Origin: a virus
Taxonomy: Duplodnaviria; Caudoviricetes
IMG/VR virus record: IMGVR_UViG_3300020434_000055
DNA: 64,000 nt
Reading direction: 5' to 3' (one strand)
Below, piece by piece: positions 1 to 64,000 of the stretch (position 1 is the first letter of the stretch; the number at the start of each line of letters is the position of its first letter). Under the pieces are notes generated by a model that saw nothing but the letters and a program-made list of their open reading frames with translations, was not told where the DNA came from and made no database searches. The translations under genes were made by a program, and so were the position numbers.

Positions 1-2
1 TT

Positions 3-128
3 ATTAACCTTATAAAAACCAAAAATGAAACTGCAGGCGTTGGAATTATTACTAAACAAAACACTACTAAAGACGTAAAACCAGGCGAAACATGGAGGCA
101 AGCGAAGAAACTTAAATTAGTCAAATAA
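3..128 (+). CDS. 3' end of a phage hypothetical protein (starts before the window)
   Basis: Frame 3 is open from the window edge to TAA at 126-128 (INLIKTKNETAGVGIITKQNTTKDVKPGETWRQAKKLKLVK). Confidence 0.6.
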   Translation: MNLIKTKNETAGVGIITKQNTTKDVKPGETWRQAKKLKLVK

Positions 129-137
129 ATACAATGT

Positions 138-509
138 ATGAGGAAGATAGCATCTATAATAGTAGTTTCATTTATATTAGTAAGTTGTACACTTATTCCT
201 AGTAAATGGGACTCAAATCAGTCTTATGCAATTACTGATCTTAGACAAATAGTAAGATCTATAGACTGCGACGGTGATGTAGTAAGAAAACTTAATCACC
301 TTAATTATAGGCTAGAATGGCTAATGTTGTACAATGAAAGTAAAGGTACTAAAGACGTAGGAAATTTGGTTACTTTATTCAATGAAACTGTACAAACATT
401 TAGACAAAAATCTACCTCATTTAGTAAAGGATATTGTACAAGTAAAAAAGAAATAATGATCGAACAATCTGATATGATTGCTCGAGCAATCCAGAGGAGG
501 ATAAAGTAA
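138..509 (+). CDS. Putative lipoprotein
   Basis: Basic N-terminus, hydrophobic stretch and lipobox LVS|C (MRKIASIIVVSFILVSC); ATAAATA at 125-131 upstream. Confidence 0.65.
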   Translation: MRKIASIIVVSFILVSCTLIPSKWDSNQSYAITDLRQIVRSIDCDGDVVRKLNHLNYRLEWLMLYNESKGTKDVGNLVTLFNETVQTFRQKSTSFSKGYCTSKKEIMIEQSDMIARAIQRRIK

Positions 510-790
510 TGGCGATTACACAAGAACACGAAGACAACCTAACAGCCGTAGTTACAGCTGATGACGGATTAAAATCTGTTGCAGAAGCGGCTCAAGCCTT
601 AGTTGCATCAAGAAAAGCAAACTCTATAACAGAATTAGCATTTATTGATTCTTTGAATGCTCTAATTGATGGCGACAAAGAGACTGAGCAAGATGCTGTA
701 GCAGGTGGTCAAGGTAAGTCTGCAGAAAAACTACATTTTGCTATTAAAGGCATGATGAAAGTTAGTAATAATACTGGCCCTTGGGCATAG
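509..790 (+). CDS. Hypothetical protein
   Basis: 93 aa ORF coupled to the upstream stop (TAATG), AGGAGG upstream. Confidence 0.7.
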   Translation: MAITQEHEDNLTAVVTADDGLKSVAEAAQALVASRKANSITELAFIDSLNALIDGDKETEQDAVAGGQGKSAEKLHFAIKGMMKVSNNTGPWA

Positions 791-820
791 TTCATAATTT
801 TATTAACTAAAAGGAACATC

Positions 821-1063: not shown

Positions 1064-1069
1064 TGAATA

Positions 1070-2988: not shown

Positions 2989-3699
2989 ATGGCTTATTTA
3001 ATAGCAAACTTGCCACCAGTAGACTGTTATGTTAGAATGGAATATCTCTATGACCTGCAAAAAGATGATAACGGAAAATTATTAGGTCAAGGCAAATATA
3101 CTCCTGCTGTCTGGGTTACTGTAAAAAGTATATCAGGTAAAGCATTATATATAGAATCCTTACTTCCAGAATATGGTGCATTATACGATAAACTACCTCT
3201 GAGTGCATACGTTTGGAAAACAGATGCAGATACAAGTAAATTTTTACCTTTAGATCATTTAGAAATTTGGGATTCCTTTTCATATTACATTACAGTTTTA
3301 GAAAAAGCAACATTATCAGGACTTCGTTGTTCATTTTTAGGTAAAGACAAAAAAATGCATAGTGGTGAATATATGTTTACAATAGATAGTTGCCATAGTG
3401 ATGATAATGAACTTAATACAACTTTTTCTGAAATACCTGATGAACACAAATCATTTAATATAATGAAATTAGATAACGGACAATATGCCGCACAACCAAA
3501 TAACAGAATGAGATGGTTTGAGCAAAGTTTGGTATCTCATGAAACTAAAATGCCAGATTTTAAAGTTAGCACAAGAGAATATAGTGTTGAAGATAATCCA
3601 AAATGGTCAGCCAATTATGGCGAGGGCGATACTTGGGCATACGAAATAAAAGAAAGCAAACCAAAAATAGACAAACCCGATTTAAATAAAGACAAATAA
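2989..3699 (+). CDS. Phage hypothetical protein
   Basis: 236 aa ORF, GAGG upstream, typical codon usage. Confidence 0.75.
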   Translation: MAYLIANLPPVDCYVRMEYLYDLQKDDNGKLLGQGKYTPAVWVTVKSISGKALYIESLLPEYGALYDKLPLSAYVWKTDADTSKFLPLDHLEIWDSFSYYITVLEKATLSGLRCSFLGKDKKMHSGEYMFTIDSCHSDDNELNTTFSEIPDEHKSFNIMKLDNGQYAAQPNNRMRWFEQSLVSHETKMPDFKVSTREYSVEDNPKWSANYGEGDTWAYEIKESKPKIDKPDLNKDK

Positions 3700-4254: not shown

Positions 4255-4551
4255 ATGATATATTACATTGACATAGACGGAACCATTTGTTATACTAAAG
4301 GTAGCGACTATGACAATAGTAAACCTGATTTAAAAAAAATAAAACAGGTTAATGAATTATATGATAAAGGTCATGAAATTCATTATTGGACTTCTAGAGG
4401 AGGAATGTCTGGAAAAGATTGGTATCTATTTACAATAGCTCAACTTAATGAATGGGGTTGTAAATTTACATCAATTAAATTAGGTAAACCTGTTTATGAT
4501 AAATGGGTTGACGATAAAGCAATAAACGAAAAGGATTTTTTTAATGGCTGA
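4255..4551 (+). CDS. Minimal HAD-superfamily phosphatase
   Basis: DIDGTIC motif I, WTSRG motif II, GKP...VDDKA motifs III/IV. Confidence 0.75.
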   Translation: MIYYIDIDGTICYTKGSDYDNSKPDLKKIKQVNELYDKGHEIHYWTSRGGMSGKDWYLFTIAQLNEWGCKFTSIKLGKPVYDKWVDDKAINEKDFFNG

Positions 4552-5038
4552 AGATTATGATAATGTAACGGAAGAATGTTTTACTTCCACTAAGAGTTTT
4601 TGGAACTTTCCTTGTGCTCATAGACAATATAGACACGAAGGCAATTGCCATTTAATTCACGGGTACAGTAGAAGTTTTCATTTTATATTTGGAATTAAAT
4701 CATTTACAAAAGAAGGCTTTGCAGTAGACTACGGTGACTTAGATGAACTAAAAGCACATTTAGATCATATGTACGACCATACATTAGTATTAGATGAAGA
4801 AGATCCATATATGGAAAATTTTAAAGTATTAGAAAAAGCAGGTGTATGTCGAATTAGAACTCATCCAATGGGACCAGGCATGGAAGGTACTGCACATTAT
4901 CTTTGTGATTGGACAGACACATGGTTACGTAAAAAATCACGAGGACGAGCTTGGGTTATTAGTGTAGAAGCTAGAGAAAATGATAAAAATAGTTCAATTT
5001 ATAAAAATCCAAATGCTGGATTTAAAGGCTGGTTATAA
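4544..5038 (+). CDS. queD: 6-carboxy-5,6,7,8-tetrahydropterin synthase
   Basis: CAHRQ...[18 protein letters not shown]-equivalent MYDH, and SVEARE are PTPS/QueD T-fold motifs. Confidence 0.8.
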
Positions 5039-5577
5039 TGAGTGACGAATTAAGCATTAGTCAATTAGATGCGAAAGGAAATAAATGTATGGTTCCTAAC
5101 GCAATGTTTAAAACAAGAGTAGCAGGTGAATGGAAAGATGTAACTACTGATGATTTATTTAAAAATAAAAAAGTAGTTGTATTTTCTTTACCAGGTGCTT
5201 TTACACCTACTTGTTCAAGTACACATTTTCCTGGATATGAATTAAAATACGATAGTATTAAAGAAACAGGTATTGATGAAGTTTATTGTATTTCAGTAAA
5301 TGATTCATTTGTAATGAATGCTTGGGCAAAAGATTTAAAAGCAGAAAAAATTAAAATGATTCCCGACGGTAATGGAAAATTTACTGAAGGAATGGGTATG
5401 TTAATCAACAAAGAACATTTAGGTTTTGGCAAACGAAGCTGGAGATACTCTGCGGTTGTAGACAACGGTGAAGTAATCAAAATGTTTATAGAACCAGGCA
5501 AGAATGATATAGGTGAAGACCAAGATCCATTTGAAACATCTGATGTTGATACCATGCTTAAATATCTTAGAACATAA
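5038..5577 (+). CDS. Peroxiredoxin (Prx5-like)
   Basis: [11 protein letters not shown] peroxidatic motif, [17 protein letters not shown]. Confidence 0.9.
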
Positions 5578-5587
5578 CGGAGAAAAA

Positions 5588-6784
5588 ATGAAAATACTTT
5601 GTATACTATACGACGATCCAAAAGACGGAATGCCTACAAGCTATCCAGTTAAGGATCTACCAAAATTAGAAAAATATCCAGACGGAATGACACTACCAAC
5701 ACCTAAAGGCAGAGATTTTACGCCAGGTGATTTATTAGGTTGTGTATCTGGAGAGTTAGGATTAAGAAAATTTTTAGAAGATGCAGGACACACATTAGTT
5801 GTTACATCTGACAAAGACGGAGAAGGTTGTCAAGCAGACAAAGAATTAGTTGATGCTGACGTTGTTATATCACAACCGTTTTGGCCATATTACTTAACAA
5901 GAGAAAAAATGGAAACGGCACCAAATTTAAAAATGGCAATTACAGCAGGTATAGGATCTGACCACGTAGACTTACAAGCGGCAATGGATCGTAAAGTTGA
6001 TGTAGTTGAAGTAACGTATTGTAATTCAAGATCAGTTGCTGAACATATTGTAATGATGATTTTATCTTTAGTAAGAGATTATCACAACCAACACAGAATA
6101 GTAAACGAAGGTGGTTGGCATATTGCAGATGCAGTAAAAAGAAGTTATGATGTTGAAGGTATGCACGTAGGTACTATTGCGGCAGGACGTATTGGTTATG
6201 ATATGTTAAGAAAGATGGCACCATTCGATGTACATCTACATTATTTTGACAAACATAGATTATCTGAAGATAAGGAAAAAGAATTAAATTTAACTTATCA
6301 TGATTCAGTTGAATCTTTAATAGCAGTTTGTGATGTGATTAATATAAGTTGTCCATTACACCCTGAAACAGAACATATGTTTAATGATGATTTAATTAGT
6401 AAATGTAAACCTGGTGCGTATATTATTAATACTGCTAGAGGAAAAATATGTGATAAAGATGCTATTGCGAGAGCATTAGAATCAGGACAATTAAGTGGCT
6501 ATGCTGGAGACGTTTGGTTTCCACAACCAGCACCTAATGACCATGTTTGGAGAAGTATGCCAAACCATGGTATGACACCTCATACATCAGGAACATCACT
6601 ATCAGCACAAACAAGATATGCTGACGGTGTTAGAGAAATATTAGAATGTTTCTTTGATGGTACACCAATAAGAGATCCGTACTTAATTGTACAAAATGGA
6701 GAACTTGCTGGTATGGGTGCTCACTCTTATACAAAAGGAACAGCAACTGGTGGATCAGAAGAAGCGGCTAAATTTAAAAAATAA
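5588..6784 (+). CDS. fdh: NAD-dependent formate dehydrogenase (metal-independent, D-2-hydroxyacid dehydrogenase family)
   Basis: GCVSGELGLRKFLE, SQPFWP, AGIGSDHVD, YCNSRSVAEH, AAGRIG, YFDKH, NTARG, GDVWFPQP, MTPHTSG. Start reset to ATG 5588 after GGAG; the track start at 5513 overlaps the previous gene. Confidence 0.93.
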   Translation: MKILCILYDDPKDGMPTSYPVKDLPKLEKYPDGMTLPTPKGRDFTPGDLLGCVSGELGLRKFLEDAGHTLVVTSDKDGEGCQADKELVDADVVISQPFWPYYLTREKMETAPNLKMAITAGIGSDHVDLQAAMDRKVDVVEVTYCNSRSVAEHIVMMILSLVRDYHNQHRIVNEGGWHIADAVKRSYDVEGMHVGTIAAGRIGYDMLRKMAPFDVHLHYFDKHRLSEDKEKELNLTYHDSVESLIAVCDVINISCPLHPETEHMFNDDLISKCKPGAYIINTARGKICDKDAIARALESGQLSGYAGDVWFPQPAPNDHVWRSMPNHGMTPHTSGTSLSAQTRYADGVREILECFFDGTPIRDPYLIVQNGELAGMGAHSYTKGTATGGSEEAAKFKK

Positions 6785-9346: not shown

Positions 9347-12016
9347 ATGAGTTATATAAATGGCTTCTTCGATAGAAGTCAAGACGTTATAAGAGTAGTA
9401 GAACGCGATAACGGAAAAAGAATTTTCAGAGAATATCCAGTCAAATATACATTTTATTACGAAGATACTCGTGGCAAATTTAAAAGCACTGACGGTAAGT
9501 ATCTAAGTAGAATTGTATGTAAAAATTCAAAAGATTTTCATAAAGAACTTGCAATTAATAGAAATAAAAATTTATACGAATCCGATATTAATCCTATTTT
9601 CCAATGTTTAAGTGAAAATTATCTCAATCAAAATGCTCCAGATTTAAAAATTGCTTTCTTTGATATAGAAGCAGACTTTGATCCTGAAAAAGGTTTTGCT
9701 TTACCAAGTGATCCTTTTATGCCAGTAACTGCTATTTCAATTTACTTACAATGGCTAGACAGCCTTGTAACTTTTGCTTTACATCCTAAAAATATGACAA
9801 TAGCACGAGCAAAAGAATCTGTAAAAAAATTTAAGAATGTACATTTATATGATGACGAAACAAAAATGATGACAGATTTTTTAGACATCCTAGAAGATGT
9901 TGATGTATTAAGTGGTTGGAATAGTGAAGGGTATGATCTTCCATATTTAATTAATAGAATATCTAAGATAATGAGCAAAGATGATACTAGACGTTTTTGT
10001 TTATGGAAACAATTACCTAAGAAACGAGAATTTGATAGATTTGGAAGAACGCAAGAAACATATGATTTAATCGGTCGTGTACATTTAGATAGTTTAGAAC
10101 TTTATAGAAAATACACATATGAAGAACGACATTCTTATAGATTAGATGCAATTGGTGACCACGAACTAGGAGAAACAAAAACTGTATATGAAGGATCTTT
10201 AGATCAATTATATAACGATGACTTTGCAAAATTTATTGAGTACAATAGACAAGACGTTGTATTATTAGATAAACTAGATAAAAAATTCAAATTTATATCT
10301 TTAACTAATGAACTTGCACATCAAAATACTGTATTACTACAAACCACATTAGGAGCAGTTGCAGTAACAGAACAAGCTATTATTAACGAAGCTCATAAAA
10401 GAGGTGTACAAGTACCTAATAGAATTAAACGTGAATCTCACTCAACAGAATCGGCGGCAGGTGCTTATGTGGCATATCCTAAAAAAGGATTACACAATTG
10501 GATTGGTGCAATGGATATAAAATCTCTATATCCTTCAGTAATTAGAGCATTGAATATGGCTCCTGAATGTATTGTTGGACAATTAAAACCTGTAGACACA
10601 GATGCGTATATAGAAGAACAAATGACATTACAAAAAAAATCATTTGCGGCGGCTTGGGAAAATCATTTTGGAACATTAGAATATGAAGCAGTAATGAAAG
10701 AAAGAAAAGATGTTTTAATTACTGTAAACTGGGAAGATGGTAAAACAGAAACAATGAGTGGAGCCCAAATTTACAAAATGATATTTGATACTAATGCTCC
10801 TTTAATGTTAAGTGCTAATGGTACAATATTTACAAGTGACTTTGAAGGTGTAATACCTGGATTATTAAGAAAATGGTACGACGAAAGATCTCATCTTCAA
10901 GAAATGAGACAAAAGGCTGTAAATGCTAAAAACTTTGCAGAAATAGAATTTTGGGATAAAAGACAACTTGTTAAAAAAATTAATCTTAATTCATTATACG
11001 GTGCCATATTAAATCCTGGCTGTAGATTTTTTGATAAAAGAATAGGGCAATCAACGACATTATCTGGTAGACAAATTACTAAACATATGGCGGCTAAAAT
11101 TAATGAAGTAACAACTGGAACGTATGATTATTTAGGAAAAGCAGTAATATACGGAGATACAGATTCAGCATATTTTTCAGCATATCCTATATTAAAAAAA
11201 GAAATAGAAACAGGTGAAATACCTTGGACTAAAGAAAGTGTTATCAAATTATATGATAAAGTTGCTGAAGAAGTTAATACTAGTTTTAAAAAATTTATGT
11301 TAAAAGCATTCCATTGTCCTAAAAATAGAGCAGATGTTATTACAGCAAGTAGAGAATCAGTTGCAGAAACAGGACTTTTTATTACTAAAAAAAGATATGC
11401 AGTATTAAATTATGAAGTAGAAGGAAATAGACACGATATAGAAGATAAATCTGGTAAAGTAAAAGCAATGGGTTTAGATTTAAAAAGATCTGATACTCCT
11501 GCGTTTGTACAAGATTTTTTAAGTGAATTATTATTAATGGTATTAACTAAAAAAACAGAAAAAGAAGTTTTAGAAAAAATTACTAAATTTAGAATTGATT
11601 TTAAACAAAGACCTGGTTGGGAAAAAGGATCTCCAAAAAGAGTAAACAATCTTGTAGAATATGTAAGAAAAGAGCAAAGACAAGGCAAAGCTAATATGCC
11701 AGGACACGTTAGAGCAAGTATGAACTGGAATAATCTTAAAAGAATGAACGGTGACAAACATTCTATGGAAATAGTAGACGGTATGAAAGTAATTGTATGT
11801 AAACTTAAAAAGAATCCATTAGAATATACATCTGTTTCATATCCAACGGATCAACTACGTATTCCAAAATGGTTTAAAGAATTACCTTTTGATGGTGACG
11901 CAATGGAATCTACTTTAATTGATAATAAATTAGGAAACTTACTAGGAGAACTAAACTGGGATATTCAATCAACTGAACAACATAATACTTTCAGTTCAAT
12001 GTTTGAATTTGAATAA
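9347..12016 (+). CDS. Family B DNA polymerase
   Basis: ExoI FDIEAD, ExoII GWNSEGYD, ExoIII YNRQD, DIKSLYPS, KINLNSLYG, YGDTDS. Confidence 0.95.
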   Translation: MSYINGFFDRSQDVIRVVERDNGKRIFREYPVKYTFYYEDTRGKFKSTDGKYLSRIVCKNSKDFHKELAINRNKNLYESDINPIFQCLSENYLNQNAPDLKIAFFDIEADFDPEKGFALPSDPFMPVTAISIYLQWLDSLVTFALHPKNMTIARAKESVKKFKNVHLYDDETKMMTDFLDILEDVDVLSGWNSEGYDLPYLINRISKIMSKDDTRRFCLWKQLPKKREFDRFGRTQETYDLIGRVHLDSLELYRKYTYEERHSYRLDAIGDHELGETKTVYEGSLDQLYNDDFAKFIEYNRQDVVLLDKLDKKFKFISLTNELAHQNTVLLQTTLGAVAVTEQAIINEAHKRGVQVPNRIKRESHSTESAAGAYVAYPKKGLHNWIGAMDIKSLYPSVIRALNMAPECIVGQLKPVDTDAYIEEQMTLQKKSFAAAWENHFGTLEYEAVMKERKDVLITVNWEDGKTETMSGAQIYKMIFDTNAPLMLSANGTIFTSDFEGVIPGLLRKWYDERSHLQEMRQKAVNAKNFAEIEFWDKRQLVKKINLNSLYGAILNPGCRFFDKRIGQSTTLSGRQITKHMAAKINEVTTGTYDYLGKAVIYGDTDSAYFSAYPILKKEIETGEIPWTKESVIKLYDKVAEEVNTSFKKFMLKAFHCPKNRADVITASRESVAETGLFITKKRYAVLNYEVEGNRHDIEDKSGKVKAMGLDLKRSDTPAFVQDFLSELLLMVLTKKTEKEVLEKITKFRIDFKQRPGWEKGSPKRVNNLVEYVRKEQRQGKANMPGHVRASMNWNNLKRMNGDKHSMEIVDGMKVIVCKLKKNPLEYTSVSYPTDQLRIPKWFKELPFDGDAMESTLIDNKLGNLLGELNWDIQSTEQHNTFSSMFEFE

Positions 12017-12017
12017 T

Positions 12018-12554
12018 ATGGCTACACACGGAATGATAGACTTGGAAACTTTAGATACTACACCTAATGCTACGATTCTTACATTAGGAGCAGTTAAATT
12101 TAATCCTTATAATAGTCAAACACCTCATACTGATTTATATCTAAAAGTAGATGTAGATGTACAAACAAAAATGGGAAGAATTGTAAATGATTCTACAATA
12201 GAGTGGTGGGGACAACAAAATAAAGAAGTTAGAGAAGATGCATTTGCAGAACAAGGAAGAATTAGTTTAGAAGAGTTAACAAAAACTCTTAACAAATGGT
12301 GCGTAGGATTAGATGAACTTTGGTGCCAAGGTCCATTATTTGACTACGCAATATTACAAAATTTATATGCACAATTAGAAAAACCTGTGCCTTGGGCTTA
12401 TTGGCAAATTAGAGACTCTAGAACAGTACTCAATATGTTGCCAAAAGATATGAGAAAAGGTCCTAGAACAGATGTTCACAATGCTTTGGCTGATTGCAAA
12501 TATCAAGCTAGAGCTATTCAAAAGGCATATAGATATTTTGGAGTTCAAAAATAA
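12018..12554 (+). CDS. DEDDh 3'-5' exonuclease
   Basis: MIDLET, WCQGPLFD, HNALAD. Start reset to ATG 12018. Confidence 0.8.
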   Translation: MATHGMIDLETLDTTPNATILTLGAVKFNPYNSQTPHTDLYLKVDVDVQTKMGRIVNDSTIEWWGQQNKEVREDAFAEQGRISLEELTKTLNKWCVGLDELWCQGPLFDYAILQNLYAQLEKPVPWAYWQIRDSRTVLNMLPKDMRKGPRTDVHNALADCKYQARAIQKAYRYFGVQK

Positions 12555-13354: not shown

Positions 13355-14818
13355 TTGAACACAGACTTAACAAAAGTTCAGAAAGATTGGGCGGTATTCT
13401 TGCCAGCGATGAGTAGTTTCTTCGCGAGAGATATAGGAAAAGCAAAACACGAAGATGATTATGTACTTCCTGAAAGAGTTCCTAAAAAGTTTGAACACGG
13501 AATCCAAGGTTTAAATTATATAGAACCAAAGGATACGTATTTTAACTATAAATGGAATTTATATTCCGCAGGTCACGCCGATTTGAATATGACAAAGTTT
13601 AGTGTTAGAGATGACATTATTAGAAATAGAAATAGAGCTAATAATTGGTTACTTGGAGACTCAGGTGGTTTCCAAATAGGTAAAGGTGTATGGGAAGGAG
13701 ATTGGAAAGATCCTGCTTGTCCTAAAGCAAGAAAGAAACGAGAACAAGTATTAACATGGTTAGATGCTAATATGGACTATGGAATGATATTAGATATTCC
13801 AGCTTGGGTTTCGAGATCACCCGAAGGTGCTAAAGCTAGTAATATTAATAGCTATCAAGAAGCTGTTAATGGTACAAAAATAAACAATGATTATTTTATG
13901 AAAAATAGAAAAGGTGATTGTAAGTTTTTAAATGTATTACAAGGTGAAAATTTCCAACAAGCAGACGATTGGTATGCACAAATGAAAGACTATTGTGATC
14001 CTAAAAAATATCCTAGTACACATTTTAATGGTTGGTCAATGGGTGGACAAAATATGTGTGATATACATCTTGCATTAAAGAGACTTGTAGCACTACGTTT
14101 TGATGGATTACTTGAAAAAGGTGTTCATGATGTTGTACACTTTTTAGGAACATCTAAACTTGAATGGGCAGTACTTTTAACAGATATACAAAGAGCTATA
14201 AGAAAATATCACAATCCAAATCTTATGATTACATTTGATTGTGCTTCTCCGTTTTTAGCTTGTGCCAATGGTCAAATTTATATTGATATCGAAATAAAAG
14301 ATAGAAAAAAATGGGTATACAGAATGCAGGCAAGTGCAGATAATAAAAAATATAAACCTGATCCCAGAACGTTTAAAGATGCTGTACTTGAAGAAAAAAT
14401 ATTTAAAAGTTTTAGAGATAGTCCAATTAGTAAAAGATTAATGCTTGATGATGTATGTTGTTATTCTCCTGGAGAATTAAACAAAATGAAAAATGATCCA
14501 AAAACTAGTTGGGATTCATTTAGTTACACTTTACAAATGGCTCACAATGTTTGGATGCATATTACAGCAGTACAAGAAGCCAATGAAGCATATGACAAAG
14601 GAATATATCCAAGTATGTTATTACAAGAACAATTTGATAGAGTTGCTTTTAAAGATATTGTAGAGGCAATATTTGCAACTAGTAATAGAGACGAAGCAAA
14701 TGCAGTAATTGAAGAATTTTCAAGATACTGGATGTCAATTATAGGAACAAGGGGGGCGACAGGCAAGAAAACAGTGAACGCAAGTACACAATTTGCTAAT
14801 TTATTTGAGGAGGAATAA
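13355..14818 (+). CDS. dpdA: TGT-fold guanine transglycosylase, DpdA-like (7-deazaguanine insertion into DNA)
   Basis: GDSGGFQ, ILDIP, NVLQG, HFLG and TFDCASP (nucleophile Asp position). No CxCxxC zinc site as found in bacterial tRNA TGT. TTG start at 13355 after AAGGAG. Confidence 0.7.
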   Translation: MNTDLTKVQKDWAVFLPAMSSFFARDIGKAKHEDDYVLPERVPKKFEHGIQGLNYIEPKDTYFNYKWNLYSAGHADLNMTKFSVRDDIIRNRNRANNWLLGDSGGFQIGKGVWEGDWKDPACPKARKKREQVLTWLDANMDYGMILDIPAWVSRSPEGAKASNINSYQEAVNGTKINNDYFMKNRKGDCKFLNVLQGENFQQADDWYAQMKDYCDPKKYPSTHFNGWSMGGQNMCDIHLALKRLVALRFDGLLEKGVHDVVHFLGTSKLEWAVLLTDIQRAIRKYHNPNLMITFDCASPFLACANGQIYIDIEIKDRKKWVYRMQASADNKKYKPDPRTFKDAVLEEKIFKSFRDSPISKRLMLDDVCCYSPGELNKMKNDPKTSWDSFSYTLQMAHNVWMHITAVQEANEAYDKGIYPSMLLQEQFDRVAFKDIVEAIFATSNRDEANAVIEEFSRYWMSIIGTRGATGKKTVNASTQFANLFEEE

Positions 14819-22141: not shown

Positions 22142-22819
22142 ATGAAAACATCTGAAAAAATTAAACAAAGATTAATAGACAAAAAAATACGTTTTTTTGC
22201 TAATGATAACATATCTAAACATATAGAAAAAGGCGAATTAAAAGATTTAGAAGTAGAAATAGAAGAAGCATTTGAAGATATATTAGATGCTTTAGTAATT
22301 GATACTGAAAACGATCATAATTCAAAAGAAACTGCTAAACGTGTAGCAAAAATGTACATCAATGAAATATTTTCAGGAAGATATGTTTCTCCTCCAAAGA
22401 TTACATCATTTCCAAATATGGGATATAAAAGTTTATATACAAGTGGTCCAATTAGTGTTAGATCAACCTGTGCTCACCATTTTCAAAACATTGTAGGAAA
22501 TTGTTGGGTAGGAGTATTACCTGAAGATGAAGTTATAGGTTTAAGTAAATTTAATAGAATTGTACACCATATTTCAGAAAGACCACAAATACAAGAAGAA
22601 CTGACTTTACAAATTTCTGAATCATTATCGAAATATGCTAAAACACCAAATGTAGCAGTAGTAGTCAAAGCAAAACATCATTGTTTAACTCAACGTGGTG
22701 TAAAAGAATCTGAAAATGATATGACCACCGCAGTTATGTTAGGAGCATTTGATACCCATGCTCCACTTAAAAAAGAATTTTATGATATATGTTTTAGTAT
22801 GAAAGGACATAGCATTTAG
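22142..22819 (+). CDS. folE: GTP cyclohydrolase I
   Basis: ETAKRVAKMY, STCAHHF, GLSKFNRIV, QIQEELT, HHCLTQRGV. Confidence 0.93.
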   Translation: MKTSEKIKQRLIDKKIRFFANDNISKHIEKGELKDLEVEIEEAFEDILDALVIDTENDHNSKETAKRVAKMYINEIFSGRYVSPPKITSFPNMGYKSLYTSGPISVRSTCAHHFQNIVGNCWVGVLPEDEVIGLSKFNRIVHHISERPQIQEELTLQISESLSKYAKTPNVAVVVKAKHHCLTQRGVKESENDMTTAVMLGAFDTHAPLKKEFYDICFSMKGHSI

Positions 22820-22826: not shown

Positions 22827-23690
22827 ATGGAATCAAATGAATTTAGAGTTACTGAAGCATTTATTTCAGTACAAGGTGAAGGCAGATTTGTAGGTGTACC
22901 TAGTGTATTTTTACGATTGTTTGGTTGTAATTTTAAATGTCGTGGCTTTGGAATGCCGAAAGGTCAATTAGCAGACGATTATTTAAAAGTAGATGCAAAT
23001 GATCCTAAATATAAAACACTTAAAGATTTACCTTTAGTGCATCGAGGATGTGATAGTTATGCATCATGGGACGCAAGATTTAGAAAGTTTACAAAAGATT
23101 ATAATGTTGAACAATTAGTTGAAAAATTATTATCTTTAACACCAGAAGGTAAGTGGACTTGTACAAACGGACAAGATATACATCTTGTTATAACAGGAGG
23201 AGAACCTTTATTAGGATGGCAAAGACTTTATGTTGACTTGTTTGAACATCCTAGAATGAAAGATTTAAAAAATGTTACATTTGAAACGAATACTACACAA
23301 CCTATCAGAGAAAATTTATTGGAGTGGACAAAAACGCAGGATAGAATACATATTACGTTTTCGTGCTCTCCGAAACTTACCGTTTCCGGAGAACGTTGGG
23401 AAGATGCTATCAAACCCAGTGTTGCTAAAAATTACTATGACACTCCCAATAGTCATTTGTATTTCAAATTTGTTGTCTGTGACAATGGCGATATTGAAGA
23501 AGTTTCAAAAGCTGTTGAACTTTATTCAAAAGCAGGTATTAGTTGTCCAGTCTACTGTATGGCCGTTGGTGGCTGTTATGAAGAGTACCAAGAAAACGCA
23601 AAAAATGTTACCGAACTCGCAATGCAAAAAGGATGGAGATATAGTCCAAGATTGCACGTCGATATTTTCGGAAACGAATGGGGAACTTAA
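22827..23690 (+). CDS. queE: 7-carboxy-7-deazaguanine synthase (radical SAM)
   Basis: EAFISVQGEG, FLRLFGCNFKC...GCDS, TGGEPLL, ETN, SPKL, SPRLH. Confidence 0.88.
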   Translation: MESNEFRVTEAFISVQGEGRFVGVPSVFLRLFGCNFKCRGFGMPKGQLADDYLKVDANDPKYKTLKDLPLVHRGCDSYASWDARFRKFTKDYNVEQLVEKLLSLTPEGKWTCTNGQDIHLVITGGEPLLGWQRLYVDLFEHPRMKDLKNVTFETNTTQPIRENLLEWTKTQDRIHITFSCSPKLTVSGERWEDAIKPSVAKNYYDTPNSHLYFKFVVCDNGDIEEVSKAVELYSKAGISCPVYCMAVGGCYEEYQENAKNVTELAMQKGWRYSPRLHVDIFGNEWGT

Positions 23691-28443: not shown

Positions 28444-28450
28444 GTGTTTC

Positions 28451-28480: not shown

Positions 28481-28491
28481 ATAAAGGATTT

Positions 28492-38882: not shown

Positions 38883-38938
38883 ACCAATATTTACCGTGAA
38901 AAATAATATGCATATTTAATTACGATAAGTATTAATTG

Positions 38939-39757
38939 ATGCCTATGAATAAACGAGTAAAAAAACTTTACGAAAACAGTACCTACAAAAACATAATTCA
39001 CAATGTTGCTGATGTATATTTTCCTTTGGATCCAAAATGGAAAAACATAGGAATAAGCCTTAGTGGTGGATGTGATAGTGCTTTATTGGCATATGTTATA
39101 TGCGACATAATTAAACAGAAAAAACTTTATACCAAAATACATATAATCTATAACGTTAGATTATGGAAAACACGTCCTTGGCAACAATATATTTTTAAAC
39201 AAGTGCTTTCTTGGTTTAAAGAAATGTTTAAAGATTTATGGTTTGTTGAACATACTAATTTTATTGCACCAGATTTAGAATGGGGCTCTAAAGGTCCAAA
39301 TATCATAGACGAATATGGCAAATTAAAAAGTGGTAATCAAATTGAATTAAGATCACACGCAGAATATATAGGTCACAAATATGAATTAGATGCTTGGTAT
39401 TGCGGACTTACTAAAAATCCTGAAACAGAATTTGATGAGCGACTCTTAGATAGAGATAGTACATTAACAAATGATACTATTGAAAATCTACATCGATTGA
39501 TAAAGCCACACATGAATGGCGTGGCTTGTCATCCTTTCACCTTCGTACAAAAAGACTGGATAGTATCTCAATATAAGAGATTAGGCATCATGAATCTATT
39601 CAATCTTACTAGAAGTTGCGAAGGTGATAAGGAAACTTATCCCGAAATATTTAAAGACTTGGATTATAAAACATATGTTCCAGGTAAAGATGTTCCTGTA
39701 TGTGGTAAATGTTTTTGGTGTAAAGAAAGACAATGGGGTATAGACAATAGTGACTGA
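38939..39757 (+). CDS. QueC-like PP-loop ATP pyrophosphatase
   Basis: SLSGGCDSALL PP-loop; TRSCEG...CGKCFWCKER zinc motif. Confidence 0.7.
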   Translation: MPMNKRVKKLYENSTYKNIIHNVADVYFPLDPKWKNIGISLSGGCDSALLAYVICDIIKQKKLYTKIHIIYNVRLWKTRPWQQYIFKQVLSWFKEMFKDLWFVEHTNFIAPDLEWGSKGPNIIDEYGKLKSGNQIELRSHAEYIGHKYELDAWYCGLTKNPETEFDERLLDRDSTLTNDTIENLHRLIKPHMNGVACHPFTFVQKDWIVSQYKRLGIMNLFNLTRSCEGDKETYPEIFKDLDYKTYVPGKDVPVCGKCFWCKERQWGIDNSD

Positions 39758-42770: not shown

Positions 42771-43662
42771 TTTTTATTTTTGTTAAATTTATATCCGCGG
42801 CGCAAGTACACCACTCTCTTGTACATACAATAGGATCTATAGGAAATTGAAACGTACCATTATAAATGTTACCTAAACTACCTCCTACTCTACAAGTTGC
42901 TCTATGCACATCACCGTCCCAATTAATCATTAAACTTTCTAAACCTGCATTACAAAGCCATCCTTTAAATTTATTAGTTTTTAAAATTAACATATCATTT
43001 ACATTACAAGTTTTGGTTTTATCTATTAAAGTATTGTGCGGTGGATTATGGTTTTGGATTTTCAAAAACTTTTTTTCTTCTTCATTATATCGATTCATAT
43101 CTTCAAAATCATCATGCTTTTTGGTCCAACGTATTGGACGTAAACTATACTTTATATTACCATTTAAAAGGCGTCTACAAGCGTCATGCACGTCGTTTAG
43201 TAAGCCGGGAAGCATCATTACGTGTACAAGAGCGTTCTTATTAACTGAGCTGTTAACTGCCCTTATAATAGTTTCCAAAACCTTTTTCCAGTCGTATTCA
43301 AAGTGCAAACTGAATACAATATGGTTAAGATAATTGTCCAAAATACTTTGATAATATTCGGCTGTTCTGGTCCCGTTGGTCGTTACATTTATCCATGTTA
43401 CTTTTGGTTTTGCGTATTCTAAAAGCTCTGTAAATTTTGGATGTACACAAGGCTCACCTCCTGTAAAACTTATTCTAGGTTTGTTCATTTTAGAAATAAT
43501 ATCTACAGTTTTTTTAAGGATTTCTATATCTGTATGTTCACTAAAATTATCATGTATCTCTGCAGGACAATAACTGCAATCATAGTTACATCTTTTACCT
43601 ATGTTCCATTCTATTTTGGTACTTTGCCGTACTTCTTCATATAAATGTTCTACTTTATACAT
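42745..43662 (-). CDS. Radical SAM protein with C-terminal SPASM/twitch-like motif
   Basis: KRCNYDCSYC, TGGEP, TTNG, CNAG...ATC...CTREWCTC. Start reset to MYKVEH at 43662. Confidence 0.85.
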   Translation of the reverse strand: MYKVEHLYEEVRQSTKIEWNIGKRCNYDCSYCPAEIHDNFSEHTDIEILKKTVDIISKMNKPRISFTGGEPCVHPKFTELLEYAKPKVTWINVTTNGTRTAEYYQSILDNYLNHIVFSLHFEYDWKKVLETIIRAVNSSVNKNALVHVMMLPGLLNDVHDACRRLLNGNIKYSLRPIRWTKKHDDFEDMNRYNEEEKKFLKIQNHNPPHNTLIDKTKTCNVNDMLILKTNKFKGWLCNAGLESLMINWDGDVHRATCRVGGSLGNIYNGTFQFPIDPIVCTREWCTCAADINLTKIKNENTQNNL

Positions 43663-44923: not shown

Positions 44924-44945
44924 AATATTAGTATTTAATGGGATT

Positions 44946-46325: not shown

Positions 46326-47032
46326 TAAAGAAAACCACCTTTCTTCGGTAGAGCTTTTGGATCTGTATTTCTAATATTACCATCGTCTATAGTCGTCTTG
46401 ACCATTTGACTATTAGGAGAATTACATCCTATAATCATATATCTTGTATATTTTTGTGTCTTCAATTCTACAGGTGGAAGAATTTCTTCTAAGTCTGTGG
46501 ATTCTGCAAATTCTGTCAAACTATTTTTACAATTTATATGACCTTTCCCTTCAGAAAAGTTATTACTTTGACATATTATTGTTTTGTTTTTAGGTAATAA
46601 TGTTATCCATTTATTAAAATCTTCTTGCGTCATATGTTCACACACTGTATTAATGATTATATCATAATCATTATAATTTTTAAAATTTAACATATCACAA
46701 GTTTCTGCTTTAAATCTTCCTTTTATTTCATATTCTTTATTCATTTCATAAGCTATTTTTTTACAATCTTCGTCTATATCAATGCTTAAAATCTTACTCA
46801 CAGATATTTCACTATTAAACAATAGTGTTGCCATTACACCATTCCAACCACCACATATAAGAACTTTAGCATCTATGATTCTTTGCATTTTATGAACTTC
46901 TTTAAGTCTTTCACATAACCAAACCTTACTTAATACTTGTCCCTTCCAAAAACTTTCTAATGTTTTATCTCTATCTTCGGATCCTCTTATAGTATCCATC
47001 CAGTATAATATGTCTTTAATATTGAGTTTCAA
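46325..47032 (-). CDS. Class I SAM-dependent methyltransferase
   Basis: VLICGGWNG motif I, SIDID, CDML, INTVCEHM. Confidence 0.75.
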   Translation of the reverse strand: MKLNIKDILYWMDTIRGSEDRDKTLESFWKGQVLSKVWLCERLKEVHKMQRIIDAKVLICGGWNGVMATLLFNSEISVSKILSIDIDEDCKKIAYEMNKEYEIKGRFKAETCDMLNFKNYNDYDIIINTVCEHMTQEDFNKWITLLPKNKTIICQSNNFSEGKGHINCKNSLTEFAESTDLEEILPPVELKTQKYTRYMIIGCNSPNSQMVKTTIDDGNIRNTDPKALPKKGGFL

Positions 47033-48005
47033 ATTGTTCTCCTAATCTATCAAATTTTCCACATTGTTTTGAACATTCCATTAAAGGTTTATCTGTCCAA
47101 GTATCTTCTATTTTTCTAAAAAATTGCGAATCAAATATTTCTTTTAAAGATTTGTTATGCAAATTAGTAAATTCTCCTATTTGATCCATATAATCTACCC
47201 TTGAGTCTTGTGTAGGCAATGTCCATTGCAAATCTAACCAACAACAAGGACTAACAGTACCATCTGCTGAAATATATATTTGACTATATTTTTTAGCTTT
47301 ACAATCTATGACGCAAGAAGTTATTTTTGCTTCTTGCATTTTAGCTATCATTTCAAAACTTTTTTTACTTGGCTCCAATATATGCGTTGTCTTTCCTGTT
47401 TCATCTATAGCGTGAAATTTATCACTTTTAAATCTTGATGTATGTTTATAACTAAAAGATTTAAAGCCCAATTCCTTACTCATTGTATGGCATTGTTCTA
47501 CTTGATGTTCATTATGTTTAAAAACTAACATATGCCATTTTGCATAACCCCCTGCTTTAATAAATGCTTTTGCATTTGTAATTATTTTTTTCCAGTCAGT
47601 AGAAACACGATATAGATGATGAGTGTCTGCCAAACCATCTATACCAAAAGTTGTTTTTACATTTTCTTTAGCCAATCCTTCCCACCAATTTATATCTCTA
47701 GCACTACCATTTGTATGCATAGCTAATCTAATTTTTGGATTAATACTTTTAATATATTGATAAATTTCTAATGTATCTTGAGCAATTATAGGATCTCCTA
47801 AATTACCACACATGAATAAACTTTCTAATTGAATCAAAAATTCTGTTGGAAACCATTTTTTAAATGTATCTAAATTAATTTCCACAAGATGTATTAATGG
47901 ATTTAGAGGACCTCCACCTATTCTTCTAGGACACATAGGACATCTAGCTTGACATTTGCTAGTAATTTCTAAATGCACATCTTTTATTTCTGAATAATTA
48001 TACAT
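47016..48005 (-). CDS. Radical SAM/SPASM protein
   Basis: SKCQARCPMC, GNLGDP, HTNG, C...ISADGTVSPCC...CSKQC. Confidence 0.85.
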   Translation of the reverse strand: MYNYSEIKDVHLEITSKCQARCPMCPRRIGGGPLNPLIHLVEINLDTFKKWFPTEFLIQLESLFMCGNLGDPIIAQDTLEIYQYIKSINPKIRLAMHTNGSARDINWWEGLAKENVKTTFGIDGLADTHHLYRVSTDWKKIITNAKAFIKAGGYAKWHMLVFKHNEHQVEQCHTMSKELGFKSFSYKHTSRFKSDKFHAIDETGKTTHILEPSKKSFEMIAKMQEAKITSCVIDCKAKKYSQIYISADGTVSPCCWLDLQWTLPTQDSRVDYMDQIGEFTNLHNKSLKEIFDSQFFRKIEDTWTDKPLMECSKQCGKFDRLGEQFETQY

Positions 48006-59995: not shown

Positions 59996-60607
59996 TTATT
60001 CCTCGTTAAAACCTGTCAGACTTTGCACTCTTACAGTATAATCTATTTGAATTAATCTGTTTAAACTTTTTTGAACAGGGTGAAATATTACGTGAGTAAG
60101 TAAATTTCCAGTACCACTAGGAGAATAACTCATCAAACCTAATTCGTCGAATACGTATAATCCTTCTGAATTACTGGCATTATCTACTGCGTCTTGTCCG
60201 CTTGGTTCACCATAATCTAATAAACAAGTAACTAAAACATCTGTATAATTTGTTCCGTTTACGTGTCTTGTCTCAATTTTATTTCTTATTGGATCAAGAT
60301 TTGAAACTGATCTATCATCTACAACTTTACTAAAAGTTTGATTGTATAGACTAGCATTAGTACCTGTTGAATTAGGTGTCAAATATGTTATAATTCCTGT
60401 AGGATCAATTGACGTTCCACCATTACCAAACACCATAGAATTTACGAATCCTTGACCCGCATTAGCAAGACTTTCTGCAAGTGCTAAACTCATATTTTCG
60501 TAATGTATGGCGTTTCTTTTATTCACAAATACATGGCCAGAATCCGGATCATGTATCTTTATATGTCCTTGAAGTAATACACCGTTATTTTCTTTTATGT
60601 TATTCAT
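59996..60607 (-). CDS. Virion structural protein (baseplate region)
   Basis: GHIKIHD...NAIHYEN...FDELGL...THVIFHPVQKSLNRLIQIDYTVR; ATAAATA at 60629-60635 upstream. Confidence 0.65.
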   Translation of the reverse strand: MNNIKENNGVLLQGHIKIHDPDSGHVFVNKRNAIHYENMSLALAESLANAGQGFVNSMVFGNGGTSIDPTGIITYLTPNSTGTNASLYNQTFSKVVDDRSVSNLDPIRNKIETRHVNGTNYTDVLVTCLLDYGEPSGQDAVDNASNSEGLYVFDELGLMSYSPSGTGNLLTHVIFHPVQKSLNRLIQIDYTVRVQSLTGFNEE

Positions 60608-60631
60608 TTACGCTCCAGTTCTTAGCTGTAT

Positions 60632-63600
60632 TTATTGCGGCAATGCCACTTCTTTTTGTCGCAAGAATCTAGCAATATCATTTTTCGTTTGACTTAATGG
60701 ATCTGTGCCAGTTTGCCATTTTTTACCTATTTTCCTAACAATTAGGATTTTTGTATCTACTACAGGGGTTTGTGTAAGTGTTATTCTAGCACTTGTTCCA
60801 TCTACACTAAATTCTGCAGGTATTATTGTATCAGCTTCTGGACTATCTTGACCATTAGCTGGGTCATATGCAGAAATAGGAGTTTTTTTCATCCTTTTAC
60901 CACCCACAAATAATTCAAATTCATTAACATTATTTGGTGTAAAACCAATAGTAATTATATTAGTACTACCATCTGCTGTATAAACTTCTGTTAAAAACTC
61001 ATCTTTATAAGGCACAGTTTGAAATTGTCCTTGATCAAACACTTCAGTACCTATAATATGTGTATTAGGTACTCCTGTTCCAAATGTTCCTCGTCTAAGT
61101 TGAGAAACTGTATTTCCTGATTTCATATAATATTCTATTCTTTCACCATCAATAAACAATACTCCAGGATTTCTACTTCCTATACTAGGTTGTGTTAATT
61201 CTGTTGCATCTATAAATTCTATTGACTGATCTGACCATAAAAGATTAGATGCTAAGAAAAATTTGTTATTATTTCCTAAACGTTTATAATGAGTTTTATT
61301 CATCATATCTTTAAATTGTCTATAACCAAATTTACCTATAAATCTTGGTGCTGTAAAGTGTACAATATCTATAACATCATCTTTAGCTAATCGTCTGTTT
61401 ATTTTTAGATACATTTGATCATTAGTTACTTTATAATCTACACTAGGTGCTAACATATCTCCATTAACTGAAACCCAAACATATTGAGCATCTTCAGCCA
61501 ATTGTCTTAATTTTATAAGTCCATTTGTTAATTGTTGATATAGATAATAATCATCTGTACCTACAGTAATAGATAATCTTGCAACTACGTCATAATTAAT
61601 TCTTTCTATTTTAGCTATATCATGATTACTAAATTGATATACTGTAATAGTTTCACTTTGAGCAGGAGCATTATTAATAGTAATTACACCTGTAGTTTCA
61701 TTTAAAGTATAATCACCATTTGACATTCCAAAAACTTTAAGTGTATCACCTATTTCTCCTACTCCTGTAATAAGTGTTATACTAGAAGTTCCAGCATTCC
61801 ATATATATTGAGATCCTTGAGATATTTCTACACCATTAAGAAATGCTCTTACGTCTGCAGGAAGTATTGTACCAGGTAATTGTTGCCAAGTTTCAAATTC
61901 ATATTCTCTATTATTATCTATTGTGAATACTTTATTAAATCCTGCATTAAGAATTTTATCTCCTACTTTAACAACAACATTATATGATAAAGGTTTTTTA
62001 TTAAAAGGTGTTTGACTTAATTGGAATGTATTAGTACTACCATCTCCAACAAAATTATCTTGAGTAACTTCACTAAAAGTTTGACTAGTACTTGCATATA
62101 CAACTATACTAACAACATCATTTTGTACTGGAGCAGTTGCAAATCTTACAACTACTCTGTTTTGAAGTGCATAAGAACTATCTGATTCGAAAATTGTATA
62201 TGAAACAACTTGACCATTCACTCTAACAAACGTATTAATACTATTAGGAATCCATACTGCTCTTGTTACAAAATCTGTAGTACTACCATCTGCGGTAAAT
62301 GTATCAAAGTCAAGTATTTTTTCTCCATTATTACTCATTGTAATAAAATTAACTTTAGAATTTAATCCTGGCGCGGTTACAAAGTCTATTTTTTTATTTT
62401 GATAATTTACAGTATATAAATTAGATTCTTGCAAAATATTATCTACTGTAACAAATATAGCATTAGCACTTTGAGGATATTCATCAAAGAAAAATGCTTC
62501 ATTTACTCCATCACCTATGTAATTGTAACTATTAATTTTACTTCCAGTTTCTCCTCCTTTATCATAAACTTGAATATCTACAGTATCAAGAACTTGTCCT
62601 GGTATAAATTCTTCTGGACCTTTAGATGTAGTAGGTGATACAAAATCATCACCTTCTACTATAATGTCTTCTGCTTTTAATCCTGTTGCAGTTGAATATG
62701 CTAAATCTCCTCCTTCTAATAAAGTATCATAGTCACCTGGATCTGGTAAGAAACTACCATCACTAGTAGATTTTCTTACTACAATTATATCACCATCAAC
62801 TGTAGGTACAGTATCAAAAGCAATACTTTGAGTAGAATCATCTCCTGTAATACTTTGAATCATTGCATTTGTATTAGTCACTGGAGTTGATGTTCCATAA
62901 TTAGGATCATCTATTCTAATTCCATTTTTATAAACATTATAAACTACTCCTGATTCTAAAGGTTTGCTTAACGTAATAACATTAGTACTACCATCCATTC
63001 TTAAAACTTCATCTTCATAAGCTGTATCATAAGTATCCCATGATCCGCTCATATAAGGATCACTATCCCAACCTGTAGAAGTGTCAAATCCTAAAGCTCT
63101 AACTTCCACACCTCCATAATCTATTCCATCTAAAATTTGTGCTAATTGATTACCAGGCATTCCTTCAGTTGGTTTATAGAAAAGAGTAATTCTGTCTTGA
63201 GCTTGTAACACAAATGCATCTATTGTATATTCTACTTTAATAGCATGAAGATTAGCAGGAGGCAAAGTAAATTGAATATGTCCTATGTATCTATTGTATT
63301 CTTTAGTTTTATCTAATATATTAGTAAAAGTATATTCACTTGTTAAACTTTCTACATTATTGACAGTTACTTTAATTGTATTAGATTTTAAATCCATTGG
63401 CCATTTTAAATAATAATCCAGTTTAGAATTATTTCCTGTAAATGTTTCTGTTCTTGCTAATGAAGTTATTAAAAATGTTCCTGTAGTTCTATCGAACTTA
63501 ACAGTAAGATGAGTAGATTTAACTAATGAACTTCCTAATACAGCACTTGCTCTAGCTGTTGTTCCAAGAGTTCCTCCTTGTAAAGTAACTGTAGGAGCTG

Positions 63601-64000
63601 AAAGATATCCTTCACCTTCTTTAGTAATTTCTATAGAAGTAACTTTTCCATTATTAATATATGATACAGCAGTAGCACCTGATCCACCACCTCCTGTTAT
63701 ATTAACTACCGGTGCATTAGTATAACCGTCACCTGCACTTCCTACATTAATTGATGTAATTTTAAATCCAACATTGTTTAACCAATGTTTAGCAGGATAA
63801 CTTATAATTTTTTGAGTACCTACTAAAGCACTATCTATAACTTTTGCAGTATTAGGTTCTATTTGTTTAAGATCATTATAAGCAGGTGCTAAATCAAAGT
63901 CAGTAACAACTGAACTAGATGGTTGCATTTCTTCATAAGAACTTACATATTCTCTAACGTTAGTTTTATAAGGTTTAGCTTCTTTAATATAATCTTCAAA
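60632..64000 (-). CDS. Very large baseplate-wedge-like structural protein, 5' part outside the window
   Basis: Frame is open to the window edge (FEDYIKEAKPYKTNVREY...); repeated F.GDG...F beta modules; ERIEY...LRRGTFGT. Confidence 0.7.
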   Translation of the reverse strand, partial: FEDYIKEAKPYKTNVREYVSSYEEMQPSSSVVTDFDLAPAYNDLKQIEPNTAKVIDSALVGTQKIISYPAKHWLNNVGFKITSINVGSAGDGYTNAPVVNITGGGGSGATAVSYINNGKVTSIEITKEGEGYLSAPTVTLQGGTLGTTARASAVLGSSLVKSTHLTVKFDRTTGTFLITSLARTETFTGNNSKLDYYLKWPMDLKSNTIKVTVNNVESLTSEYTFTNILDKTKEYNRYIGHIQFTLPPANLHAIKVEYTIDAFVLQAQDRITLFYKPTEGMPGNQLAQILDGIDYGGVEVRALGFDTSTGWDSDPYMSGSWDTYDTAYEDEVLRMDGSTNVITLSKPLESGVVYNVYKNGIRIDDPNYGTSTPVTNTNAMIQSITGDDSTQSIAFDTVPTVDGDIIVVRKSTSDGSFLPDPGDYDTLLEGGDLAYSTATGLKAEDIIVEGDDFVSPTTSKGPEEFIPGQVLDTVDIQVYDKGGETGSKINSYNYIGDGVNEAFFFDEYPQSANAIFVTVDNILQESNLYTVNYQNKKIDFVTAPGLNSKVNFITMSNNGEKILDFDTFTADGSTTDFVTRAVWIPNSINTFVRVNGQVVSYTIFESDSSYALQNRVVVRFATAPVQNDVVSIVVYASTSQTFSEVTQDNFVGDGSTNTFQLSQTPFNKKPLSYNVVVKVGDKILNAGFNKVFTIDNNREYEFETWQQLPGTILPADVRAFLNGVEISQGSQYIWNAGTSSITLITGVGEIGDTLKVFGMSNGDYTLNETTGVITINNAPAQSETITVYQFSNHDIAKIERINYDVVARLSITVGTDDYYLYQQLTNGLIKLRQLAEDAQYVWVSVNGDMLAPSVDYKVTNDQMYLKINRRLAKDDVIDIVHFTAPRFIGKFGYRQFKDMMNKTHYKRLGNNNKFFLASNLLWSDQSIEFIDATELTQPSIGSRNPGVLFIDGERIEYYMKSGNTVSQLRRGTFGTGVPNTHIIGTEVFDQGQFQTVPYKDEFLTEVYTADGSTNIITIGFTPNNVNEFELFVGGKRMKKTPISAYDPANGQDSPEADTIIPAEFSVDGTSARITLTQTPVVDTKILIVRKIGKKWQTGTDPLSQTKNDIARFLRQKEVALPQ

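Follow-up and report, generated by a model that had tools for sequence, protein, structure and literature searches.

The DNA considered here raises the question of why a phage should lack, throughout its sequence, a five-base word that its genes ought to contain dozens of times. The stretch analyzed, 64,000 bases of the IMG/VR record IMGVR_UViG_3300020434_000055 and called the window below, comes from an uncultured marine jumbo phage, and the word is GCWGC (GCAGC or GCTGC), which an earlier note on the same DNA had reported as apparently absent. We show that the absence is complete, that it is achieved through the choice of alanine codons and that it is shared by whole clades of related phages. 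We consider it probable that the loss of GCWGC is restriction-site avoidance directed at a Type II enzyme of the host that cuts GCWGC or GCAGC, and we weigh this reading against several others, among them an enzyme carried by the phage itself.

Absence of GCWGC and recoding of Ala-Ala pairs

Neither GCAGC nor GCTGC occurs on either strand of the 64,000 bases, a single count serving both strands because the two words are reverse complements of each other. Three null models agree in expecting about 35 to 43 sites: dinucleotide-preserving shuffles give 34.6 (standard deviation, sd, 5.7), a maximal-order Markov model gives 43, and a shuffle of synonymous codons within the 81 open reading frames (ORFs) gives 42.2 (sd 3.2), with a minimum of 31 in 1000 replicates. 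The last of these is codon-aware, as the earlier note had asked of a null model; its own estimate of about 20 sites by chance was too low by half, and the absence is stronger than it had stated. The equal depletion of GCSGC (GCGGC or GCCGC) that would speak against such a claim is not seen, and this word is enriched, with 53 occurrences against 13.2 in the codon shuffle.

The enrichment of GCSGC lies in one reading frame, 51 of the 53 sites being in-frame Ala-Ala pairs. Every Ala codon that stands before a GCN codon is GCG (30) or GCC (21), that is, 51 of 51, where the earlier note had seen the same in more than 40 pairs. Before any other codon Ala is normally GCA (563) or GCT (393), as had also been noticed, and rarely GCG (37) or GCC (85), so that GCS codons make up 11%. 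The other two frames, in which few sites are expected at 31% GC, are free of the site as well: a codon ending in GC never precedes AGC or TGC. Where Gln stands in a G_C context its codon is CAA, in five of five cases, and Leu in this context is never encoded by CTG. The removal of GCWGC is synonymous and frame-specific, and the protein is left unchanged. The recoded positions read off earlier (587, 10646, 13060, 27697 and 32372; Table 1) are all exact, and the sites then named for comparison are indeed present (GATC 174, GANTC 130, GAATTC 14, CCWGG 60 and GGCC 27).

GCWGC is the only word wholly absent from the window, and further words are depleted, namely CATG (105 observed vs. 222 expected), GCGC (9 vs. 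24), GGATCC (4 vs. 14) and GGTACC (3 vs. 13). The earlier proposal of selection against one site holds with respect to selection, but not with respect to a single site.

Some longer or non-palindromic words are also strongly under-represented in the window as well as in its two nearest relatives: TAAATA/TATTTA (55 vs. 144, both strands), TAATTA (92 vs. 165) and CTTA/TAAG (436 vs. 724, both strands). The T4 late-promoter word TATAAATA contains TAAATA, and the scarcity of TAAATA may reflect avoidance of spurious late promoters.

The nearest relatives are two nearly identical contigs, G001 (104.7 kb, estimated to be ~30% complete) and G002 (90 kb, ~24%), and it is from these completeness estimates that we derive a genome size of ~350 kb. 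Over 55.7 kb, 13.9% of the bases of G001 differ from those of the window; at third codon positions the figure is 22.8%. When the spectrum of substitutions observed in G001, taken separately for each base and codon position, was applied to the window in a neutral simulation, 29.0 ± 5.5 new GCWGC sites were expected, with a minimum of 15 in 500 runs. G001 has none, and because neutral drift would have created about 29 sites there, purifying selection against GCWGC is still acting. At the GCS-GC pairs of the window, the S is mostly kept in G001 or exchanged for the other S; where the third base of the codon has turned into A or T, the word has always changed at a further base too.

A gene of cellular origin carries the same mark. 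The NAD-dependent formate dehydrogenase (FDH) of the window is 88-90% identical in amino acids and 80% identical in nucleotides to cellular FDH genes (Pelagibacterales, Pelagibacteraceae and Gammaproteobacteria by name). Cellular copies hold three and four GCWGC sites, and the phage copy holds none; at conserved Ala-Ala positions the phage has GCG GCA, and the cellular genes have GCA GCA or GCT GCA.

The redoxin and FDH genes (5038-6784) are inserted relative to G001 and G002, which lack FDH at that position. This insertion suggests a recent capture and, possibly, a hint at the host.

Distribution of the purge among related phages

The family B DNA polymerase (PolB) of the window is 47% identical to those of the Sinorhizobium phage Phosso and of Atu_ph07, and 43% identical to that of RaK2. 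A megablast search found no cultured phage with a DNA-level match to the window; in IMG/VR, ocean samples hold hundreds of its relatives. Five related contigs (G001 and G006-G009), all of them fragments and together 558 kb long, have no GCWGC at all against ~530 expected. G006 belongs to an independent lineage, and other relatives keep the site near expectation (Table 1).

To place these states on a phylogeny, we used a PolB tree of 81 sequences. It contains two fully purged clades, one of 22 entries that include the window and one of 15, each with 100% support, and purged single entries inside otherwise normal clades (L067, 0 observed of 22 expected; L055, 0 of 6), which amounts to at least four changes of purge state. 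Of the 78 loci that an unrelated gene served to recover, 26 lack GCWGC and most of the others are near expectation, with only three (L290-L292) about half depleted. Across marine T4-like phages the GCWGC purge is close to binary and follows clades. The surviving sites of the intermediate contig G003 are patchy along its length, with 0-17 sites per 10 kb, and no flank preference was found among them; this distribution is compatible with a patchwork of purged and unpurged stretches as well as with relaxed avoidance in the lineage.

The relatives have purged further palindromes, each its own set. G007 has lost most AGCT (5 observed of 387 expected), TGCA (227/835), GGCC (61/226) and ACATGT (0/21), and G008 lacks ACATGT (0/13) and nearly lacks GCTAGC (1/20). 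G004, which has normal GCWGC, is without AGCGCT (0/26) and nearly without GTGCAC (2/55), with AAGCTT and CTGCAG also low; G010 is low in GTAC (90/290) and G006 in AATT (71/214). This genome-by-genome mosaic is what is expected from hosts with several Type II restriction-modification systems (PMC6286503), and a single phage nuclease would not explain it.

Three loci of a sister lineage (L073, L079 and L080) keep GCWGC and are nearly without CATG (3/41, 1/57 and 0/54), a purge of a different single site. In the cultured Prochlorococcus myophages P-HM1, P-TIM40 and P-RSM1 (L299-L301), GCWGC is slightly over-represented (84/59, 65/46 and 81/58) and GCSGC is nearly absent (0-3), a bias opposite to that of the window.

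Table 1. Sites and genes of the window, and related contigs. Positions are those of the window unless a contig is named; GCWGC counts are observed/expected.
Feature	Position or length	Strand	Remarks
Recoded Ala-Ala pair GCG GCT	587..592	+	One of 51; coordinate checked
Cyanophage 'PurM-like' gene	2989..3699	+	D...ExK-like motif; purged-only in the nine-genome set, including G006
QueD / 6-pyruvoyl-tetrahydropterin synthase	4544..5038	+	Pfam PTPS, E = 5e-18
NAD-dependent FDH, cellular origin	5588..6784	+	GCWGC 0
PolB	9347..12016	+	Pfam DNA_pol_B and exonuclease domain; phylogenetic marker
Ala-Ala-Ala as GCG GCG GCT, inside PolB	10646..10654	+	Identical word at 13060 and 27697
DEDDh 3'-5' exonuclease (Rv2179c-like, DexA-like)	12003..12554	+	Pfam PF16473, E = 4e-37
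TGT/DpdA-like guanine transglycosylase candidate, 487 aa	13355..14818	+	After the clamp gene; invariant GDSGGFQ motif
FolE, GTP cyclohydrolase I	22142..22819	+	Pfam GTP_cyclohydroI, E = 5.5e-45
Possible QueE-like radical SAM enzyme, weak	22827..23690	+	Pfam Radical_SAM E = 0.002, below family cut-off
MoxR-type AAA ATPase, then DUF2201 metallopeptidase/VWA protein	27325-29775		Pair kept in G003 and G004
Possible QueC-like PP-loop enzyme, weak	38936..39757	+	Pfam QueC E = 0.0097, ATP_bind_3 E = 0.019, both below cut-off
Hjc-like PD-(D/E)XK nuclease, small	G001 14207-14749 (L081)		~26 kb past the window's end; GFERE ... ECK motifs
G001	105 kb		GCWGC 0/85
G002, nearly same sequence as G001	90 kb		GCWGC 0/68
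G006, independent lineage	31 kb		GCWGC 0/39
G007 (IMGVR_UViG_3300030376_006203; loci L190-L197)	148 kb		GCWGC 0/150
G008	200 kb		GCWGC 0/195
G009	74 kb		GCWGC 0/64
G003 (IMGVR_UViG_3300020442_000007; loci L092-L100)	165 kb		GCWGC 101/220
G004 (IMGVR_UViG_3300044701_000569; loci L101-L118), complete genome	357.6 kb		GCWGC 770/868
G010	106 kb		GCWGC 217/242

The agent behind the avoidance

Under restriction-site avoidance, the hosts of this phage lineage would possess a Type II activity that restricts DNA at GCWGC. The enzyme could be palindromic, of the TseI/ApeKI type, or a Type IIS enzyme of the BbvI type, which recognizes GCAGC(8/12); on double-stranded DNA the two would have identical sets of targets. 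Genomes bearing a site would be cut, and selection would remove new sites as they arise. In this AT-rich genome nearly all potential sites are GCW GCN at Ala-Ala pairs, which would make GCG or GCC obligatory in the first Ala codon. That GCWGC is a Type II target, as the earlier note stated, is borne out by TseI (PMC3643589) and ApeKI (PMC8557920).

The phage also appears to possess a means of modifying its guanines, and avoidance would still be needed if its transglycosylase modifies guanine in certain contexts only. The product of 13355..14818 had no sequence-level match in Pfam, PHROGs or the PDB. Its AlphaFold2 model has a predicted local distance difference test (pLDDT) score of 81, and in a Foldseek search the best 50 of 184 significant matches are all tRNA-guanine transglycosylases (TGTs), the 50th being murine QTRT1, with E from 2e-6, probability 1.0 and TM scores of 0.38-0.54. 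We regard it as a candidate member of the TGT superfamily, at the level of the fold only. In keeping with the earlier view that the phage appears to modify its guanines, it carries this TGT/DpdA-fold gene together with clearly recognizable FolE and QueD; the QueE- and QueC-like ORFs fall below the family cut-offs.

Characterized DpdA enzymes act in narrow contexts. The DpdA of phage CAjan modifies guanines in GA and GGC contexts, and enzymes whose sites have guanines in GT, GC and GGT contexts still cut its DNA (PMC7544227); that of phage iggy is strict for GA (PMC10484667). Both guanines of GCWGC precede C, on both strands, and because the characterized enzymes act at GA and GGC, the site is probably never modified and would lie outside the reach of the guanine modification of the phage. 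If the site is unmodified, the nuclease may not need to be "insensitive" to the 7-deaza modification, contrary to one of the two alternatives of the earlier note. Guanine modification does not replace site avoidance. Orthologs of the DpdA-like gene occur in purged and unpurged relatives alike, and the gene is thus independent of the purge. Over nine genomes, palindromes that contain G but not GA have been purged somewhere in 17 of 46 cases, and those that contain GA in 1 of 18 (GGATCC); the contrast (Fisher p = 0.013) is between related genomes and between classes that differ in composition. GA-containing palindromes seem largely to be spared, a pattern that is consistent with context-limited modification but suggestive only.

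Two alternatives had been left by the earlier note, a host nuclease or a nuclease of the phage that destroys host DNA at GCWGC; the host branch is favored, and the phage branch is without support. With PADLOC and Pfam, no restriction endonuclease family was detected among 126 ORFs (the window and the parts of G001 and G002 outside it) or among the 79-80 purged-only ORFs of G006-G009, where the purged genomes are all fragments estimated to be 9-56% complete and restriction enzymes diverge quickly. The suggested search beyond the window for a site-specific nuclease recognized no restriction endonuclease in the fragments of the purged relatives. Neither a restriction endonuclease nor a cytosine methylase was recognized in ~620 kb of purged DNA, no C5-methylase (PF00145) was found in G001-G005, and none of the 26 families exclusive to purged genomes is nuclease-like. 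The N6_N4 DNA methylase of G007 (44678-45565), a singleton, and the methylase-like ORFs found in G003 and G010 turn up sporadically and show no link with the purge, and we reject them as its determinants.

Three genes were tempting candidates, and each was rejected. The DEDDh exonuclease gene directly follows PolB in the purged clades and nowhere else: it is beside PolB in all purged-clade loci with enough downstream DNA, as well as in L055, and in 0 of 39 unpurged or low loci, and a further 67 loci with close homologs have 1 GCWGC against 716 expected. However, orthologs with 50% identity are located elsewhere in the unpurged G004 and G010 and in the half-depleted G003. In the unpurged relatives, PolB is followed by a HAD-type phosphomannomutase-like gene and cupin genes, with the DEDDh ortholog at another place. 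What links this gene to the purge is synteny and lineage rather than causation. The PurM-like gene, a common one in cyanophages, is present in 26 purged and 52 unpurged loci; its homologs in cultured cyanophages and pelagiphages are annotated as PurM or ferredoxin, and its structural model is all-beta, at low confidence. For the Hjc-like nuclease of G001, ten homologs were detected, in this lineage only and nine of them in purged DNA, but the most distant one (54% identity) lies in DNA with 33 of 34 expected sites, a weak test given only ten loci. None of the three genes tracks the purge across independent lineages.

A phage-encoded lone GCWGC endonuclease, one without a methylase that destroys the DNA of hosts or competitors and for which a site-free genome would be self-protection, is in our judgment an unlikely cause. 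The purge is absolute and has been handed down within phage clades, the gene could sit in the unsampled DNA of these incomplete genomes, and nine of the ten homologs of the Hjc-like gene are in purged DNA; yet no restriction endonuclease family was recognized in the scanned ORFs and no C5-methylase in G001-G005, all three candidates have homologs in unpurged DNA, the purged-only families offer nothing nuclease-like, and a lone nuclease leaves the several other palindromes purged genome by genome unexplained. We think it no likelier that an unrecognized methylase-less nuclease of this kind spreads among aquatic T4-like and jumbo phages, with the purge as self-protection; if it did, the binary, clade-wise purge would show which phages are armed with an offensive weapon, for use on the DNA of the host or on phages that co-infect it. 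Quite improbable is a third possibility, in which the target is methylated GCWGC, a form that the earlier note had also allowed for: a host methylase would mark the phage DNA, and a BisI-like nuclease (G(m5C)NGC) of the next host would cut it. BisI-family enzymes do cut GCNGC with several methylated cytosines (PMC4926085, PMC11347163), and among aquatic bacteria there are orphan methylases for GCWGC (PMC6329791, PMC8919816). On the other hand, the BisI-type site is GCNGC, and GCSGC is enriched in the window, so that the selectivity would have to come wholly from the methylase. There is also no signature of deamination, GTWGC and GCWAC, the products expected from 5-methylcytosine (m5C), both being at expectation, and we know of no host pair that combines such a methylase with a modification-dependent nuclease.

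That same lack of excess leads us to reject m5C deamination as a mutational bias. More generally, exclusion of the word for a reason other than defense, as a packaging, replication or transcription signal or through mutational bias, is very improbable. The depletion of the non-palindromic words TAAATA and CTTA, at the counts given above, indicates that forces besides restriction shape word content. However, close relatives that share the core replication and structural genes have a normal GCWGC frequency, GCAGC and GCTGC are exact reverse complements of each other and form a known restriction target, the synonymous change uses rare codons contrary to the codon bias of the genome, and neutral drift would have recreated ~29 sites. 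Least credible of all, to the point that we give it almost no weight, is an artifact of sequencing or assembly, such as systematic miscalling of a modified motif. Modified motifs do cause systematic nanopore errors (PMC10687267), but miscalls would strike all frames and yield Arg, Pro and Gly codons, where 51 of the 53 GCSGC sites share a single frame and are synonymous, and dozens of assemblies made independently, from different samples, show the same purged state.

Avoidance of a host restriction enzyme is the reading that we favor over a phage enzyme, because each relative has purged additional palindromes of its own, because the DpdA-like gene is carried by unpurged as well as by purged relatives, and because the characterized DpdAs modify only GA and GGC contexts, which GCWGC lacks. 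Several observations weigh against it, and the host enzyme is an agent that we infer. The only hint at a host points loosely to SAR11-like cells, through FDH homologs that are 88% identical and named Pelagibacterales, and two SAR11-like cellular loci have normal GCWGC counts (32/27 and 32/42). The cultured Pelagibacter myophage HTVC008M is unpurged (41/37), and all seven of the cultured relatives tested, with Pelagibacter, Prochlorococcus, Synechococcus and Flavobacterium hosts, are at normal GCWGC. In a published survey of marine methylomes, GCWGC methylation was seen in one Chloroflexi genome only (PMC8919816), a weak point given that the method detects m5C poorly; in fresh water, CL500-11 Chloroflexi have an N4-methylcytosine (m4C) methylase for GCWGC (PMC6329791). 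Finally, the purging of one word so often across aquatic phage lineages could also indicate a phage-borne factor.

Gene content, implications and known systems

The 81 ORFs cover 97.6% of the window. Its gene content includes QueD, FolE, PolB, the DEDDh exonuclease, a flap endonuclease, ClpP and a MoxR/VWA pair, together with several radical-SAM enzymes and tail-fiber genes. Between 32488 and 53234, mostly on the minus strand, there is a run of ~20 genes, most of which have no family match apart from the named enzymes. It includes at least four radical-SAM enzymes (32488-33633, 39750-41168, 43655-44923 and 47016-48005) as well as the weak QueC-like gene (38936-39757), and it looks like a large biosynthetic cluster. 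PADLOC viperin models match six ORFs of the scanned set.

Selection on one five-base word has overridden codon bias over ~620 kb in six contigs and five purged lineages. If the agent is a host enzyme, the hosts of these marine jumbo phages, an abundant group, would commonly possess an activity that cuts specifically at GCWGC. The all-or-none state of GCWGC is an easy sequence marker that could sort uncultured phages by the defense repertoire of their hosts, and the contrast between purged and spared palindromes predicts which guanine contexts the DpdA-like enzyme modifies. What the present analysis adds is statistics that take codons into account, evidence that selection is ongoing, the distribution of the purge on a phylogeny and the purged captured gene, as well as fold-level support for a DpdA-like enzyme and the rejection of three tempting candidate genes.

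The arrangement of a TGT-fold transglycosylase with FolE and QueD in the replication module is like that of the 7-deazaguanine DpdA systems of phages (Hutinet et al. 2019, PMC6884629; CAjan, PMC7544227; iggy, PMC10484667). In contrast to those systems, the protein here is ~490 aa long and lacks a sequence match in Pfam, PHROGs and the PDB, QueE and QueC are only weakly recognizable, and the predicted modification coexists with site avoidance. The Type IIP enzymes TseI (Thermus) and ApeKI (Aeropyrum) recognize exactly the word that is absent from the window, G^CWGC (PMC3643589, PMC8557920); the known sources of TseI, ApeKI and BbvI are thermophiles or Bacillus, whereas the setting here is marine plankton. 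No homolog of these enzymes was identified in the phage DNA, in which no search aimed at them was made.

The closest parallel for the purge itself is the restriction-site avoidance surveyed in non-temperate double-stranded DNA phages (Rusinov et al. 2018, PMC6286503), where orthodox Type II sites are completely eliminated in about a tenth of viral genomes. As in that survey, a short Type II target has been lost completely and synonymously, in a large lytic-type double-stranded DNA phage, in a lineage-specific manner and with relatives that purge other sites. The present case differs in that the host enzyme is the presumed rather than the known agent, in that the purge is common to whole clades of uncultured marine jumbo phages, and in that avoidance coexists with a predicted guanine-modification system. 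Restriction-site avoidance is a known phenomenon, and the phage of the window is a clean example of it.

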